From contig JANOQN010000074.1 of the NCBI GenBank assembly GCA_031422315.1, positions 19,444-83,443 of the forward strand: a stretch of 64,000 nt of DNA, given 5' to 3'. Of this stretch, positions 44,795-52,580 are shown piece after piece. Source of the DNA: Rhodanobacteraceae bacterium. Lineage in GTDB: Bacteria; Pseudomonadota; Gammaproteobacteria; Xanthomonadales; SZUA-5. The notes below the pieces were generated by a model. The model was not told the DNA's origin and ran no database searches. It worked only from the letters and a program-made list of their open reading frames with translations. The position numbers and the translations under genes are program-made. Numbering within the stretch: position 1 is the first letter of the stretch; the number at the start of each line of letters is the position of its first letter.

Positions 44795-44973
44795 TTTGCT
44801 GCCTAGCTTGAAAGCAGTCTGAAATTTAGTCTATCTGTGCATAAAAATGCAATTAATAAGTTGTTAAAACAGAAAATGAAGCGAAAATGCACTCATTTGT
44901 GCGAGCCAAACTGATGTTTTTTTGGGTGCTCGCGCCAGGATTTCTTGGGTTTGCGCAGGTTCTAGCGCTGAAA

Positions 44974-45144
44974 GCGCGGCACAAGGTAGCCTGGGGCAAC
45001 GCCCCAGGTGTTGGTACACCACGCTTTAGAGCCCTGTAAGGGCGCTACAATTGGTTGTCATATACATTGTGTCGCCCTTACAGGGCTTAACTTTGAGTGT
45101 TGCTTGAACCTGGGGCGTTACCCCAGGCTACCTTGTTGCGCGCC
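44974..45144. repeat. 171-bp nested perfect/near-perfect palindrome (MITE-like or large structured element) in the intergenic region
   Basis: Outer arms gcgcggcacaaggtagcctggggcaacgccccagg and cctggggcgttaccccaggctaccttgttgcgcgc. Inner arms agccctgtaagggcg and cgcccttacagggct. Central palindrome acaattggttgtcatatacattgt. Confidence 0.8.
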
Positions 45145-45370
45145 TTTGGCGCTTTAATCTTGGCCTTGTGATGCGCAATGTTTCTTGAAAGGTCATGCGT
45201 TCCTTTAAATGACTGAAAACTGGAAATCACCAAATTGGGTTTCCACCTAAGTTTGAAGCGGTCAACAGAAAAACATCAGTCTGGTTCGCACCCACATCCG
45301 AAGCGCTTTGCTGGCTCAGCTTACCTTTTAAGCTACTATTGAGTCTAGTTACCTGCCAAAAACGTGAGTC

Positions 45371-47234: not shown

Positions 47235-48428
47235 TCACGAAAACAAATTGATCAAATCATTCAAAAAGCGCTGGCCCAGCTCGGTCGGTCGAATCAGCTC
47301 GCCTTTGGGCATATCAATGCGCTCAAGCAAGCCTTTTGCGAGCGCCTTATGAAACCCACTGTTAGTTTCCAAACTAAGACCGGTGTAAGCACTGAAATCT
47401 GATTTCAAGAAACCCTCATGCAATCTCAGCGCGTTGAGCATGTATTCAAAGGCAAGCTCGTCTGCCGTCAGTTCGCGTAGTTTTATCGCACTTGCATGGC
47501 CTGCACTCGCCAGATAGAGCCTCGGGTTCTTTTGCTTTTCCAATCTAGTGATTTGCTGGGTATTCAAGTCAGTGATTTTGCCGTGTGCGCCTGCGCCTAT
47601 GCCTAAGTAATCGCCAAAACGCCAGTAAACTTGATTGTGCTGTGAGCGCTTGCCAGCTTTGGCATAAGCGCTGACTTCATAATGTTCAAAACCTGCGGCA
47701 GCCAGTTGGGCTTGACAAGCCTCTTGAATCGCCCACGCGGTGTCGTGATCGGGTAAGTCAGCCGGGGGAAAGCGCGCAAACACGGTGCCGGGTTCCATGG
47801 TCAGGTGATAGTGCGACACGTGCTCAGGATTGAGCGCTAACGCTTTCGTAAGATCATCCAGCGCACCAGCCTCATCTTGCCCTGGCAGCGCGTACATCAA
47901 ATCAATATTGATATTGTCAAACCCGGCTTGCCTAGCTTTGCCGATTGCCGCAACGGCCTCGGTACTGCTGTGGATGCGGCCCAAGCGCTGCAAAATCACA
48001 TCATCAAAACTTTGCACGCCAAAAGAAAGCCGATTCACCCCAGCCTGACGATAGCCGAGCAAATTGCCGTATTCGGCGGTGCCTGGGTTGCATTCGAGCG
48101 TGATTTCGGCATCAGGCCGCACTTTAATACGGGCGCGCACGCCGTCTAAAATCTGGGTGATCGCATCGCTAGAAAATAAGCTCGGCGTGCCACCGCCAAA
48201 AAATATGCTGACTACGCAGCGGCCCCACACGCGTGGCAAATCCAGCTCTAGATCGCGCAGCAGCGCGGCTACGTAATCGGCTTCGGGGATTGACGCGGGC
48301 TGCTGATGCGAGTTGAAATCGCAGTACGGGCATTTACGCACGCACCAGGGCAAGTGGATATACAGCGCCAGCGGCGGCAGGCTAAGTATATTAGTCAGGC
48401 CGACTGATTCCGCCGCGTCGATTTGCAA
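47235..48428 (-). CDS. hemW: radical SAM family heme chaperone HemW (YggW-like)
   Basis: CxxxCxxC motif LYIHLPWCVRKCPYCDFNS and a HemN-like C-terminal domain. Confidence 0.88.
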   Translation of the reverse strand: MQIDAAESVGLTNILSLPPLALYIHLPWCVRKCPYCDFNSHQQPASIPEADYVAALLRDLELDLPRVWGRCVVSIFFGGGTPSLFSSDAITQILDGVRARIKVRPDAEITLECNPGTAEYGNLLGYRQAGVNRLSFGVQSFDDVILQRLGRIHSSTEAVAAIGKARQAGFDNINIDLMYALPGQDEAGALDDLTKALALNPEHVSHYHLTMEPGTVFARFPPADLPDHDTAWAIQEACQAQLAAAGFEHYEVSAYAKAGKRSQHNQVYWRFGDYLGIGAGAHGKITDLNTQQITRLEKQKNPRLYLASAGHASAIKLRELTADELAFEYMLNALRLHEGFLKSDFSAYTGLSLETNSGFHKALAKGLLERIDMPKGELIRPTELGQRFLNDLINLFS

Positions 48429-48431
48429 AAC

Positions 48432-49430
48432 CTATGCCGATTTAAATGAAAAGCGCGCGGTGCCAACTTGCAAAATATCGCCATCGCGCAGCAGCTGTTC
48501 GCCGACCGGCACGTCGTTAATGGTCAACATACCAACGCCTGCGCCGCCGATATCGCGGAACATAAAGCCCGCGCGGGTCAGGCTGATATCGGCTTGACGG
48601 CCCGCGACGTTAACCAAAATCACGTCGCAACCTGGATCAGAACCGATCACAATTGGGCGCAGGCTGAGCATCAGCGCGGAATCTCCGGCGTCTTTGTTTT
48701 GCGGCAGTAAGCGGCCGGGGCGAAACACGACGGTGGCGTCTGGGTTCGCGCGTTTAACGGGCTCTGGCGCACTAGGAATCGGCGGCGGTATCGGCGCAGG
48801 AACGGGGCGGACTTGTTCGGTGACCGAACCCATTGCCGGCGGATTGATTGAACCTGGAATCGGCGGTGGCACCGGTTTTACGATCGCGGTCAGCTCAGGC
48901 GCATCCGGCATATTGCCAAAACGGGGCTTGGTTGGCTCAATATTTGGCTCAAGCTTGGGCGCTTCACTCATCGGCATTTCCAGCAGCGCAGATTCGGAGC
49001 CAAACGCTTGCAAAAAGCGCTCGCGAATGCTGCGGGCTTGCTCATGCTCGGCTTGACTGGCGTTGAGCGCGCTCACGATGGCTTGTTTGCGCTGTTCGAA
49101 CTCACCCCCGGCGAATTCGCCCAGTGAATGGCGAAACTCCAGCTCTTGCTGGCTTAGTTTGGCGTTTTCCGCTTCGCGTTCTAACTTTTCCAACGCCTCG
49201 TGCAATTGCGCATACAGTGCACGGGCTTTCGCTTGCAGCGGCTGCGCTTGTTCTGACAGTAATTGGCGCTGCGATTCGTAATCCCCGCGCACCCTCAAAT
49301 ACACCGGCGGCGCCACTTCAGCACGGCGCTCTTCCATCGCGGCTAGGCGCTGCTGCATCACGTCACGCTGGGTTTTAAGCTCGGCGAGTTCATCTAAAAC
49401 GCTGAGATCGATATTGGTGAAAGCGGCCAT
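48432..49430 (-). CDS. FHA-domain protein with N-terminal coiled coil and Pro-rich linker
   Basis: C-terminal FHA signature IVIGSDPGCDVILVN...SLTRAGFMFRDIGG...GMLTINDVPV...LRDGDILQVG. 3-bp gap to hemW. Confidence 0.7.
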   Translation of the reverse strand: MAAFTNIDLSVLDELAELKTQRDVMQQRLAAMEERRAEVAPPVYLRVRGDYESQRQLLSEQAQPLQAKARALYAQLHEALEKLEREAENAKLSQQELEFRHSLGEFAGGEFEQRKQAIVSALNASQAEHEQARSIRERFLQAFGSESALLEMPMSEAPKLEPNIEPTKPRFGNMPDAPELTAIVKPVPPPIPGSINPPAMGSVTEQVRPVPAPIPPPIPSAPEPVKRANPDATVVFRPGRLLPQNKDAGDSALMLSLRPIVIGSDPGCDVILVNVAGRQADISLTRAGFMFRDIGGAGVGMLTINDVPVGEQLLRDGDILQVGTARFSFKSA

Positions 49431-49490
49431 GCGAAAATCCTTGTCAGTCTTAAAACGGGCTTAAAAAATGGGTGTACAGCTAATCGCAAT

Positions 49491-50267
49491 TCAAACGGGC
49501 AGAACAGCCAAATCTATTGCGCCAAAGCGCAATTCATCACCGATTTTAATAGGAGTTGGCACGCCGGTTTTAATCCGCACGCCGTTGATCTGGGTGCCGT
49601 TTGCGCAGCCCACTTCTTCGCGCAGAAAAATCATGCCGCCTTCAATCAAGATTTTGGCATGCCTGCGGCTGAGCGTACGCTGGCTATCGAGTGCGCCCAG
49701 ATCAATCTCAGGCACCACGCCGGTGACCGGATCGGGCCTGCCAATTAAAAGCTCGCGCTGATCGGCGCGTACGGCGAATTCGGCGCCGCTGTCATGCCGC
49801 AATTTCATCAGCATGCTGGCGGCGGAGCTAGCTGCGGCAGTCACCGCGCGAATTTCCGCGGATACCGAAATCGCTGCGGTGGGCGCATTTAAGCGCCGCT
49901 TGATATCACCCAGCTCGGTGCTGGCGTGCTGCAAGCTTTGCTCAGTGCGGCGCAGTCGAAGCGCGAGCTTTCGCATAATGCGCACGGCAATTTCAAAATT
50001 TTGCTGGACTAATTCAGCGAACGCGCTGCGATCAATCCGCAGCAACCTCGAATTTTCCTTGGCGCGCGCAGAAGCAAAACGCGGCTGATCTTCCAACACC
50101 GCCATTTCGCCAAAAAAATCCCCGGGCTCCAGTACTGCGAGCGGCTGCGCGCCGCGCACTTGCCGGGTGATCTCGACCGATCCCACTTCAATGATGTACA
50201 TCTCATTGCCGGGGTCGCCTTCGCGAAATATAAACTGCCCTGCCGGAATTTCGACAAATGAACTCAT
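49491..50267 (-). CDS. cyclic-nucleotide-binding domain + FHA domain fusion protein
   Basis: N-terminal cNMP-binding fold (FREGDPGNEMYIIEVGSVEI...GDFFGEMAVLEDQPRFASARA) and C-terminal FHA (LLIGRPDP...SRRHAKILIEGGMIFLRE...TQINGVRI). Confidence 0.75.
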   Translation of the reverse strand: MSSFVEIPAGQFIFREGDPGNEMYIIEVGSVEITRQVRGAQPLAVLEPGDFFGEMAVLEDQPRFASARAKENSRLLRIDRSAFAELVQQNFEIAVRIMRKLALRLRRTEQSLQHASTELGDIKRRLNAPTAAISVSAEIRAVTAAASSAASMLMKLRHDSGAEFAVRADQRELLIGRPDPVTGVVPEIDLGALDSQRTLSRRHAKILIEGGMIFLREEVGCANGTQINGVRIKTGVPTPIKIGDELRFGAIDLAVLPV

Positions 50268-50538
50268 GCGGATTCCTCAACACGTATTTAGAGCGCGAAG
50301 TATGCCGCAAGCACAGCATTTGCGCAGTGCCGATGGCGCGCCAATCCACCGCGCTGCCGCAAAAATAGGGGCCTTCCGCATTTCCCGGTGCGTTCAGCTG
50401 ACCTTGATCCCAGGGATCAAGTGGAGTGATCGGCCTAAGCCTTAGGCTTTCCGCATGGAGCGGACATGCACACGAGGCCGGCGAGTGATCGCTCCGGGGT
50501 CAAGTTATGGGACAAGGCGATATGTTGAAGCGCTGCCA

Positions 50539-50632
50539 AAGATCGCAGAAGGCGCACTGCCATAGTAGCGAGCAATTGCGAACGACTCAAGACGGCAATT
50601 GCGAAGGTGCGTTCACCTAAGTGATTAAGTGT
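50539..50632. repeat. left copy of a ~95-bp direct repeat flanking the rhodopsin gene (right copy at 51781..51875)
   Basis: aagatcgcagaaggcgcactgccatagtagcgagcaattgcgaacgactcaagacggcaattgcgaaggtgcgttcacctaagtga, versus aagatcgcaaagggtgtacggccagagtagcgcgcaactgcgaacgacttaagacggcaattgcgaaggcgtcttcacccaagtga; ~80% identity. Confidence 0.8.
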
Positions 50633-50637
50633 GGGCC

Positions 50638-50669
50638 AAAAAAAACGCCAAACAGAGGACCCGTCTGGC
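50638..50669 (-). terminator. rho-independent terminator of the rhodopsin gene (minus strand)
   Basis: On the minus strand: aacgccagac-gggtcctctg-tttggcgtt followed by TTTTTTTT. Confidence 0.7.
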
Positions 50670-50703
50670 GTTCTTGTTTGCAGATTTGACGCGTGTCTAA
50701 AAC

Positions 50704-51462
50704 TTAATGTGCGCCACTTGGGTCAGCAATTTCTGATTTTCGAACCGCGATCATGTAGATCAATATGCCAAACATGGCCTTCGCAACAATATCGGCAATC
50801 GTATATCCGACCTGCACGCCCGTAGCGGCAGCGCCGCCTGTCAAGCCAATCATCGGCAAAACGTAGACGACCGGGTAAAAACACCAGGACAATACTGTCA
50901 GCGTCCGTGCGGCGCGGACTAGACCTCGTACTTCAGCGGGCTGCGCTTCAATAGCATCACGTAAACCAATGAAAAGATCATAAACGATGATCACAAAAGG
51001 CACCATTGCTGCAGTCCACCAGATCCAGCGCGTGGTCGGGTCACTCGAGATTTCGCCAGGGTAGCCGAGAACTACCATTAGCGCAGCAAGAAACCCAAGT
51101 TTCAAGCCTTTCGAGATTGTTTCGCTCCGGCTTAGGCCCATCACCAGAATCAGCTCAATCAATAACAATGGCACGGTAAGCAGCCAATCTACGTAGCGAT
51201 AGGCATCGTTAAATTTAATCCCCGATGGTTTGATCTCGCTGCCTGCAATAATAAAGGCCGCTTCCCAAGAATCAAAGATCCGAACATAGTGATAACAAGC
51301 GATCAGGGTAACAATTCCTGAAATTGTGATCGCGGTGCGGTAGGCAGCGCTTACTTGAGTACGTGACAAGAACAAAAAGATCGTCGCTGCACCCATAACT
51401 GCAATGGTGAACGAAAACGCGTTAAAGACCAGTTCGAACTGGCTAAGATTAATTGCATCCAT
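50704..51462 (-). CDS. microbial rhodopsin of the xanthorhodopsin/proteorhodopsin clade, predicted light-driven proton pump
   Basis: N-terminus FELVFNAFSFTIAVMGAATIFLFLSRTQV...CYHYVRIFDSWEAAF is xanthorhodopsin-like. Helix C RYVDWLLTVPLLLIE carries the D-T-E proton acceptor/donor triad with Leu at the tuning position. The helix G Schiff-base lysine is in YTIADIVAKAMFGILIY. The ATG at 51462 follows a GGAG RBS; the track ORF extends to 51540. Confidence 0.9.
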   Translation of the reverse strand: MDAINLSQFELVFNAFSFTIAVMGAATIFLFLSRTQVSAAYRTAITISGIVTLIACYHYVRIFDSWEAAFIIAGSEIKPSGIKFNDAYRYVDWLLTVPLLLIELILVMGLSRSETISKGLKLGFLAALMVVLGYPGEISSDPTTRWIWWTAAMVPFVIIVYDLFIGLRDAIEAQPAEVRGLVRAARTLTVLSWCFYPVVYVLPMIGLTGGAAATGVQVGYTIADIVAKAMFGILIYMIAVRKSEIADPSGAH

Positions 51463-51780
51463 AAAAATACTCCGAGTAGGTAAGAAGCTAAAACGTCTAT
51501 GACGCATTGACATTCTTTCCGCACTTTTATGCGAGGCCAAACGTCAACGTTCATCCGTTGCCGCCACAAACTCGCGTTCGCATTGTAATAACTCACAACT
51601 GGAACACTTTCGTTGGCTCCGCACTTGGGGCTAGGTTCCCAAGGAGAATGTTAAGTATGCGCTTCAAAGCTGTGACAAAAAGCAGAATATTCTGGCTTCT
51701 AAGCGTGAATGCTTGGGCGTTGCTATCCTTGGCACGAAGCATTTCTTTTAGTCCCACGTGGATCAAATTGAGTGGTAACT

Positions 51781-51875
51781 AAGATCGCAAAGGGTGTACG
51801 GCCAGAGTAGCGCGCAACTGCGAACGACTTAAGACGGCAATTGCGAAGGCGTCTTCACCCAAGTGACTGTAATTG
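51781..51875. repeat. right copy of the ~95-bp direct repeat; overlaps the last ~20 bp of rph
   Basis: See left copy. The repeat spans the rph stop codon (51855). Confidence 0.8.
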
Positions 51876-52580
51876 CGCCGCTTGCAGTTCCGAACAGCCC
51901 TGCGCAGCCAGCGCCAACATGGAATCAAGCTCGGCGCGTGTAAATGCCGCGCCCTCGGCCGTGCCTTGAATCTCGATAAAGCCGCCGACCGCATTCATCA
52001 CGACGTTCATATCGGTATCGCAATCGCTGTCCTCAGCGTAATCCAAATCTAGCACCGCTTGGCCTTTGTACCAGCCCACGCTGACCGCAGCGATGTGGCC
52101 TCTGACAATCGGCCGCTCGATTTTTTTATGCGCTTTGATCCAGCGGCAAGCGTCCACCAGCGCGACATACGCGCCGGTAATCGCCGCACAGCGGGTGCCG
52201 CCATCGGCTTGCAGCACATCGCAGTCGAGCGTAATCGTGCGCTCACCTAATACCGTTCGATCCACCACCGAACGCAAGCTGCGGCCAATTAAACGCTGAA
52301 TTTCGTGCGTGCGTCCGCTCGGGCCGTCTTTGTTCTCACGCCGCCCACGCGTATGCGTCGCGCGCGGCAGCATGCCGTATTCCGCCGTCACCCAACCCAG
52401 GCCAGTGCCGCGCAAAAATGGCGGCGAGCGATCTTCCACACTGGCCGTACAAAGCACTCGGGTATTGCCCATACTGACTAGCACCGAGCCCTCGGCATGT
52501 ACCGTAAAGCTACGCTGGATTGTTAAGCTGCGTAGCTGATCGGCGGCGCGGCCGGAAGGGCGTTTAAGTTCAGTGGTCAT
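51855..52580 (-). CDS. rph: ribonuclease PH
   Basis: RNase PH motifs: RAADQLRSL..., [38 protein letters not shown]. Probable start MTTELK at 52580; the track ORF starts at 52595. Confidence 0.9.

Follow-up and report, generated by a model that had tools for sequence, protein, structure and literature searches.

How did a solitary rhodopsin gene come to lie just downstream of rph, and what are the two direct repeats that bracket it? These questions are raised by a 64,000-nt stretch of contig JANOQN010000074.1 (assembly GCA_031422315.1), referred to here in its entirety as the window, the source of which appears to be an uncultured Lysobacterales-like gammaproteobacterium; named matches to its rph, at 72–75% identity, are Lysobacterales. 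A preliminary description of the window took the repeat for the target-site duplication left by site-specific insertion of a mobile single-gene cassette between rph and the FHA-domain genes. Comparison with related loci leads us to a partly different reading, in which foreign DNA carrying the rhodopsin gene was inserted in the promoter region of the 6S RNA gene (ssrS) and duplicated this target, perhaps by a Campbell-type crossover. We assign the reading as a whole a probability of about 0.72.

Read along the minus strand, the locus consists of rph, the right repeat copy, a 318-nt spacer, the rhodopsin gene, its terminator, the left repeat copy, 6S RNA and a gene coding for a protein with FHA and cyclic nucleotide monophosphate (cNMP)-binding domains. 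The repeat copies and the genes that frame them are as follows.

51855..52580, minus strand: rph (RNase PH, 241 aa), an open reading frame (ORF) whose 241-aa homologues carry PF01138/PF03725
51781..51866, minus strand: right (rph-proximal) copy, comprising the real rph 3' end and stop codon, an altered ssrS promoter and a relic of 6S +1..+16
50539..50624, minus strand: left (6S-proximal) copy, comprising a relic of the rph end, the predicted working ssrS promoter and the first 16 nt of 6S
50369-50554, minus strand: full-length 6S RNA gene (ssrS), Rfam RF00013, model positions 1-187
49491..50267, minus strand: cNMP-binding/FHA-domain protein gene, PF00027 + PF00498, assigned also by synteny

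The two direct copies, 50539-50624 and 51781-51866, are 86 nt long and 85% identical without gaps, with 1242 nt from start to start, and a 30-nt core is found exactly twice in the 64 kb, a number expected to be 0 in shuffles. Their content is revealed by the 6S RNA gene, which the preliminary description overlooked. ssrS is detected with a covariance score of 71.5 bits against a gathering score of 46.4 (E 3e-13; Rfam RF00013) and starts within the left copy, its 5'-terminal 16 nt forming the end of that copy. At its other end the left copy opens with TCACTTAGGTGA (50624-50613), a relic of the last three rph codons and stop. Conversely, the right copy opens with the genuine rph end (TCACTTGGGTGA), the TGA stop at 51855-51857 lying within it as originally described, and closes with a relic of the 6S 5' end (+1..+16 at 51796-51781) that probably continues to about 51771. 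The presence of an rph relic in the left copy and a 6S relic in the right copy therefore identifies the repeat as a duplicated target segment comprising the rph 3' end, the predicted ssrS promoter and the 6S 5' end to at least +16/+26. In the related strain L090 the repeat is called as 109 nt at 77% identity and the right-copy 6S relic is traceable to +26, with 20/26 matches to 6S +1..+26; homology of the copies thus runs ∼10 nt further into 6S than the 86-nt call. The earlier recognition of two direct copies is upheld, while the outer limits given for them, 50632 and 51875, were slightly generous on the rph side. As a structured RNA the repeat gave no signal, with a minimum free energy z of ∼0 on both strands and no Rfam match besides 6S.

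The 58–69-nt spacer between rph and ssrS is predicted to be the ssrS promoter. In the left copy the arrangement is TTGAGT-17-TACTAT-7-+1 (-35 at 50590-50585; -10 at 50567-50562), and TTGAGT, 17 nt, TA(C/G)TAT and 7 nt to the 6S start are kept in all relatives with an empty site, whereas the lineages differ in what lies between these hexamers and upstream of them. Retention of hexamers and spacing while the intervening sequence differs therefore constitutes a phylogenetic footprint of the ssrS promoter. 6S RNA itself is present in all relatives at 98–100% identity. In Escherichia coli, ssrS is expressed from sigma-70-type promoters and 6S RNA is processed. The window gene is similar in having a sigma-70-like -35/-10 pair directly upstream of full-length 6S but differs in its position between rph and the cNMP/FHA gene, in having one promoter identified and in its lineage-specific GCAATTGC boxes. 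Background on the E. coli ssrS promoters and 6S RNA is available (PMC3299989, PMC5982834).

In the window, L090 and L083 lineages, the ssrS promoter contains two such boxes, TTCGCAATTGC with the 8-bp palindrome GCAATTGC, 23 nt apart, one upstream of the -35 and the other within the -35/-10 spacer; the L085/L086 lineages have none there. The boxes are located at 50572-50582 and 50595-50605 in the left copy and at 51837-51847 in the right copy, the box within the -35/-10 spacer having been lost from the rph-side copies of both strains. We consider them a candidate lineage-specific operator. A role for TTCGCAATTGC as a widespread operator was rejected, as the exact 11-mer occurs only in the repeats and matches with one mismatch number 10 in the window against 5.7 expected. 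A 6-bp inverted repeat, AAGACG/CGTCTT, also surrounds the first GCAATTGC box of the right copy, just after the rph stop (51827-51853; minus strand AAGACGCCTTCGCAATTGCCGTCTT). It arises from derived substitutions (CG>GA, A>G) common to both rph-side copies and is absent from the 6S-side copies.

Occurrence of an insertion is shown by empty sites. Seven rhodopsin-less metagenomic contigs representing two lineages (L085, L097 and L098; L086-L089) carry the rph stop, 69 nt and then 6S, this 69-nt homologous segment being single and holding one ssrS promoter. The 1156-bp rhodopsin insert with two repeat copies is found in the window lineage and L090 only. Thus, the empty-site check proposed earlier bears out an insertion with a duplicated target, but the site described as lying between rph and the FHA genes is more precisely the 58–69-nt rph-ssrS spacer. 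Five flanking loci agree on the tree ((window, L090), L083), (L085, L086), on which the insert is confined to one subclade. The rhodopsin gene is 94% identical in DNA and 97% in amino acids between the window and L090, values comparable to those of the flanking genes and indicative of a single old insertion passed on vertically to both. Both window copies are of the L083 promoter type, not the L085/L086 type, and the duplication therefore occurred later than the split from L085/L086.

The closest rhodopsin-less relative is L083, whose one repeat copy is 92% identical to the left copy of the window. Its rph stop is directly followed by a different, non-coding insertion of 563 bp, whose core (about 1214-1410) shares 72% identity with a palindromic element of the window (44964-45155). 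The rph-ssrS spacer was thus hit by two independent insertions, the rhodopsin segment and the 563-bp segment of L083. The latter also contains three copies of a 35-nt motif (GCGTGCTTCGAnAAGCTCAGCAnnAAC) resembling repetitive extragenic palindromes (L083 1079-1113, 1504-1538 and 1538-1572), the last of which abuts the ssrS promoter. The window element at 44964-45155 is a near-perfect, non-coding palindrome of ∼190 bp whose arms score 44.7 and 37.4 bits against Rfam Acido-Lenti-1, and it looks like a mobile or repetitive element. Another strain-specific insertion adjoins rph in L090, where a DUF5615/DUF433 (toxin-antitoxin-like) pair and an ORF of unknown function lie upstream of rph (1387-2442), a position occupied by kup in the window and L086.

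The empty-site contigs were obtained by exact-protein look-ups of rph homologues (87–90% identity) and a metagenome scan; scanning with the 6S 5' end added just two empty sites, and exact-protein look-up of the window rph itself returned no record. A scan of species-representative genomes with the cNMP/FHA protein detected distant relatives only (≤69% amino acid identity), without adjoining rph or 6S. Independent assemblies, namely Logan SRR20217188 and SRR20217185, which are identical, and the diverged JGI 3300079097, show the repeat-rhodopsin arrangement too, and it is therefore not an assembly artefact.

The inserted segment and the stretch that adjoins it contain the following features.

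50704..51462, minus strand: xanthorhodopsin-family rhodopsin gene, 252 aa (bacteriorhodopsin-like 7-TM domain PF01036, E 1.4e-39)
51463..51700, minus strand: conserved non-coding rhodopsin leader, 238 nt, 95% identical to L090
51701..51780, minus strand: poorly conserved stretch after the right copy, 80% identical to L090 with 3 indels
50638..50675, minus strand: intrinsic rhodopsin terminator, a 15-bp stem followed by U8

The rhodopsin is predicted to be a light-driven proton pump of the xanthorhodopsin family with a DTE motif. Its best structure matches are Gloeobacter rhodopsin (GR; 6NWD, 2e-73), 9WFA (5e-70) and xanthorhodopsin (XR; 3DDL, 2e-69), with proteorhodopsins at ∼1e-26, and it aligns gap-free to GR and closely to XR. 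RYVDWLLTVPLLLIE, containing the DTE motif of helix C, and IADIVAK, containing the Schiff-base lysine of helix G, align ungapped with the same residues of GR and XR, from which we take their roles to be the same. Codon positions 1 and 2 are 97–99.6% identical between the window and L090 while position 3 is 85% identical, and the gene is therefore under purifying selection.

The preliminary description of the gene as self-contained was well founded. A GGAG ribosome binding site (51473-51470) is located 7 nt upstream of the ATG, and the terminator, although missed by a simple scanner, is real (-24.9 kcal/mol, z = -3.1), with stem changes in L090 that are paired and keep the pairing; it directly abuts the left copy. 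Leader identity of 95% exceeds that of rhodopsin third codon positions (85%), and the leader presumably holds the rhodopsin's own promoter, for which a candidate chosen by eye is TTGGCC-17-AAGAAT, ∼50 nt upstream of the ATG. The leader has no Rfam match, and no ORF in it has a Pfam match. A coding function for the 318-nt spacer was rejected, as ORFs 51507-51782 (+), 51593-51766 (-) and 51351-51596 (-) and a gene called in L090 have no Pfam match and are broken by indels between strains.

Several observations suggest that the rhodopsin gene is foreign, its named relatives outside the lineage being mostly of Burkholderiales type while rph matches Lysobacterales. The best homologues beyond its own lineage are 72–77% identical, and the named ones are mostly from Burkholderiales (Actimicrobium, Massilia, Rhodoferax). 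Two of the three homologous rhodopsins for which contigs were examined adjoin crtE/crtI/crtB/crtY and blh. The window gene resembles such rhodopsin 'photosystems' (rhodopsin + crtEIBY + blh) in being a xanthorhodopsin-family DTE pump acquired across class boundaries, but here rhodopsin stands alone, with no crt or blh genes found within the 64 kb. DNA similarity to other rhodopsin loci ends at the limits of the coding sequence, none being detected in leader or terminator. Composition, suggested earlier as a check, gave a divided answer: GC is lower in the insert than in the window (0.48 versus 0.53), but rhodopsin GC at third codon positions (GC3), 0.52, lies within one standard deviation of the window genes (0.57 ± 0.06). 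This mild deviation fits an old, ameliorated acquisition.

Divergence between strains indicates which repeat copy is likely to function. Identities by segment between the window and L090 are:

6S RNA: 100%
left copy: 96.5%
238 nt before the rhodopsin ATG: 95%
right copy, whole: 84%
right copy, first 45 nt: 93%
right copy, last 41 nt: 73%
80 nt after the right copy: 80%, with 3 indels
6S-FHA spacer: 77%
third codon positions: 70–85%

Differences within the right copy are unevenly distributed, 3 falling in the first 45 nt but 11 in the remaining 41 (Fisher p = 0.018). This latter part, the following 80 nt, the 6S-FHA spacer and third codon positions are all taken as evolving near the neutral rate. 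These values lead us to predict that 6S is transcribed from the left copy. In the right copy, the half that comprises the -10, spacer and 6S relic appears to be decaying at about the neutral rate; the hexamers of the right copy are TTAAGT (-35, 51832-51827) and TACTCT (-10, 51809-51804) in the window and TTGAGT and TACTTT in L090. Transcription of rhodopsin probably starts at a promoter of its own within the conserved leader, with a possible contribution of rph read-through and the weakened duplicate promoter. As a rough clock, the right and left copies have diverged by 15%, while divergence between strains is 16% for right copies and 3.5% for left copies; on this rough measure the duplication would be about 1.5 times as old as the strain split, compatible with copies that were initially identical.

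Sequence just after the right copy, CACTCAATTTGATCC(C), resembles 6S 127-142, with a shuffle p of ∼0.006 in L090 and 0.05–0.07 in the window, whereas Rfam cmscan over 231 nt detected no 6S there even at E ≤ 10. The resemblance is suggestive only, but 51701..51780 may hold decayed 6S remains, as if a whole 6S copy had been duplicated and then internally deleted. On a larger scale, window 47235-52580 and L090 2763-8110 form a mosaic, third-codon identity being 0.70 in rph and 0.76 in hemW but 0.82–0.85 in rhodopsin and both FHA genes. Homologous recombination between the lineages, later than their split, may have exchanged a central block that includes rhodopsin.

The flanks of the insert are syntenic core genes in the empty-site relatives, and no integrase or transposase is found nearby, in agreement with the preliminary description. 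The cNMP/FHA gene is the downstream neighbour of ssrS in every clade member, while direct adjacency of rph and ssrS is specific to the small clade containing the window. In the next outgroup, L099 (4001-5865; rph 73% identical), a protein-coding gene follows 68 nt after rph and neither 6S nor FHA genes are present. In E. coli, RNase PH is among the exonucleases that trim 6S RNA 3' ends. By analogy, adjacency of rph and ssrS in this clade may not be accidental.

Insertion at ssrS has precedents. In a TIGER survey, integrative elements were located in 13 ssrS genes, which they both interrupt and restore (PMC7192596). A 60-nt repeat overlapping ssrS bounds the Acinetobacter baumannii prophage phi19606 and is single-copy in prophage-less strains (PMC8914354). 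The window insert shares with these elements foreign DNA at the 6S gene, a repeat of tens of nt at both ends, genomes with a single-copy empty site and an intact 6S. In contrast, duplication here affects the ssrS promoter and the 6S 5' end (about -83 to +26), not the 3' end, and extends into the gene upstream; at only 1.16 kb, the insert has a single cargo gene and no integrase, the repeat copies are 15% diverged and the event is old. Thus, direct repeats overlapping ssrS at both ends, an intact ssrS and a single-copy empty site are all observed, while an integrase inside the element is not. The cis-mobilisable elements (CIMEs) of the ICESt1 family in Streptococcus thermophilus are remnants of integrative elements that are flanked by att sites and lack recombination genes. 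The window insert is similar, being a small element between direct target repeats with no recombinase of its own, and has the look expected of a reduced ssrS-targeting island. However, no related integrase-bearing element is known for this lineage, and the rhodopsin insert is at most a possible member of such a family.

Combined, these comparisons give the following course of events. In the ancestor, rph was followed by an ssrS promoter spacer of ∼60–70 nt and the 6S RNA gene. A 1156-bp foreign segment with rhodopsin, its 238-nt leader and its terminator entered the spacer, the same event duplicating the target. As a result, the rph stop codon was kept, 6S retains a complete promoter in the left copy, and the rhodopsin terminator shields 6S from read-through. 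As the route of entry we tentatively favour, with less than even confidence and by analogy with the elements described above, a Campbell-type event in which a circular DNA bearing its own rph-ssrS junction entered the chromosome by a single crossover; the integrative element would afterwards have been reduced to its cargo gene, like a CIME.

A number of observations weigh against this reading. Only ∼80 nt of the insert are unaccounted for, and ORF and Pfam analysis detected no integrase, excisionase or pseudogene remnant in or near it. No exact IMG/VR match was found to two conserved parts of the repeat and the rhodopsin was absent from viral contigs, although such absence is weak evidence, and plasmid-borne relatives of the rhodopsin are all <60% identical. 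The duplicated block extends into rph, which is needless for a gene-restoring attP but expected of a duplication arising in situ. The similarity to 6S 127-141, if real, fits an origin by tandem duplication or homologous recombination better than an att core. The predicted ssrS hexamers score only 8/12 against the sigma-70 consensus and a simple promoter scanner made no call, and the GC3 of rhodopsin leaves composition weakly informative on foreign origin.

Some of these points fit a route without a recombinase, which we regard as somewhat less likely than the crossover. Here illegitimate or microhomology-mediated recombination would have attached a linear foreign fragment (leader, rhodopsin and terminator) to the replicating chromosome at two staggered positions, or the fragment would have landed where the units of a tandem duplication of rph end, promoter and 6S meet; in both cases, the stretch between the junctions would have been duplicated and its redundant upstream copy would have decayed. 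Such a route agrees with the lack of a recombinase or remnant, with duplication boundaries that look arbitrary, inside rph and inside 6S, with the possible internally deleted 6S pseudogene after the right copy and with the rough clock, which fits copies that were identical at the event. However, double illegitimate integration is very rare, no clear junction microhomology is readable, the right junction being decayed, and exact abutment of terminator and left copy would need coincidence or selection. Co-option of the rph-side promoter copy, driving rhodopsin through a ∼330-nt 5' untranslated region under 6S-type growth-phase control, appears unlikely. In its favour, the copy is correctly oriented upstream of rhodopsin, T1, A2 and T6 of the -10 hexamer and five of the six -35 bases survive in both strains, and 93% identity is retained over the first 45 nt, a segment that takes in the -35 and one GCAATTGC box. 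In contrast, divergence of the spacer, the surroundings of the -10 and the start region is close to neutral (73% identity), neither strain retains the second GCAATTGC box, and poor conservation of the next 80 nt, with indels, compared to 95% for the 238 nt at the ATG places the promoter nearer the gene. We consider improbable, too, that the insert is an att-flanked, recombinase-less, CIME-like phototrophy module still movable by an ssrS-specific integrase encoded elsewhere, and/or that the promoter copy has been kept to couple the pump to 6S growth-phase control.

If rhodopsin were instead ancestral to the clade, the empty sites would be deletions by recombination between the repeats, and direct repeats of ∼100 bp can indeed mediate precise deletion leaving one copy, as the empty sites appear. 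We judge this quite improbable, as the L085/L086 promoters differ from both window copies except in the hexamers and are without GCAATTGC boxes, two or three independent losses would be required compared with one gain, and the nearest named relatives outside the lineage belong to another class; for L083 alone, secondary loss is possible. Classical transposition, by which a single-gene cassette would have created a target-site duplication and still be able to move, accounts for direct target repeats flanking the insert and for empty sites, but is very improbable. Target-site duplications of known transposons are 2–15 bp. A transposon-type duplication is excluded here because the duplication is 86–109 bp long, the insert ends lack terminal inverted repeats and no transposase ORF or domain is present. 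The locus is moreover single, old and vertically inherited, and related rhodopsins elsewhere are neither beside 6S nor flanked by such repeats. The 'site-specific' mobile cassette of the preliminary description is not supported, a single insertion event inherited by two lineages being seen, with the repeat absent from the viral contigs scanned and the plasmid-borne rhodopsin relatives <60% identical. Scarcely any weight is given to the repeat being a common regulatory motif or repetitive element that occurs twice by chance. The two operator-like TTCGCAATTGC boxes with their 8-bp palindrome would suit such an element, but the 30-nt core lies at just two places in the window, the 11-mer is exact only in the repeats and not enriched with one mismatch, rph and 6S relics at the inner ends show segmental duplication, and the repeat is without an RNA-fold signal.

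Our preferred reading, a foreign rhodopsin insertion that duplicated its ssrS-promoter target, joins two phenomena that are known already, namely rhodopsin genes gained by horizontal transfer and insertions at ssrS whose direct repeat preserves the gene. What is unusual at this locus is duplication on the promoter side, minimal size and the lack of a recombinase. No new mobilisation mechanism is revealed and general interest is modest. For interpretation of DNA from sequence alone, the locus carries a caution, as a 'mystery repeat' beside a gene may turn out to consist of the promoter and 5' portion of a small RNA that has escaped annotation. For this uncultured Lysobacterales-like clade, the analysis locates ssrS and its promoter, and it provides a dated, natural example of a single-gene phototrophy module placed in a promoter region of ∼60 nt with neither neighbour broken.

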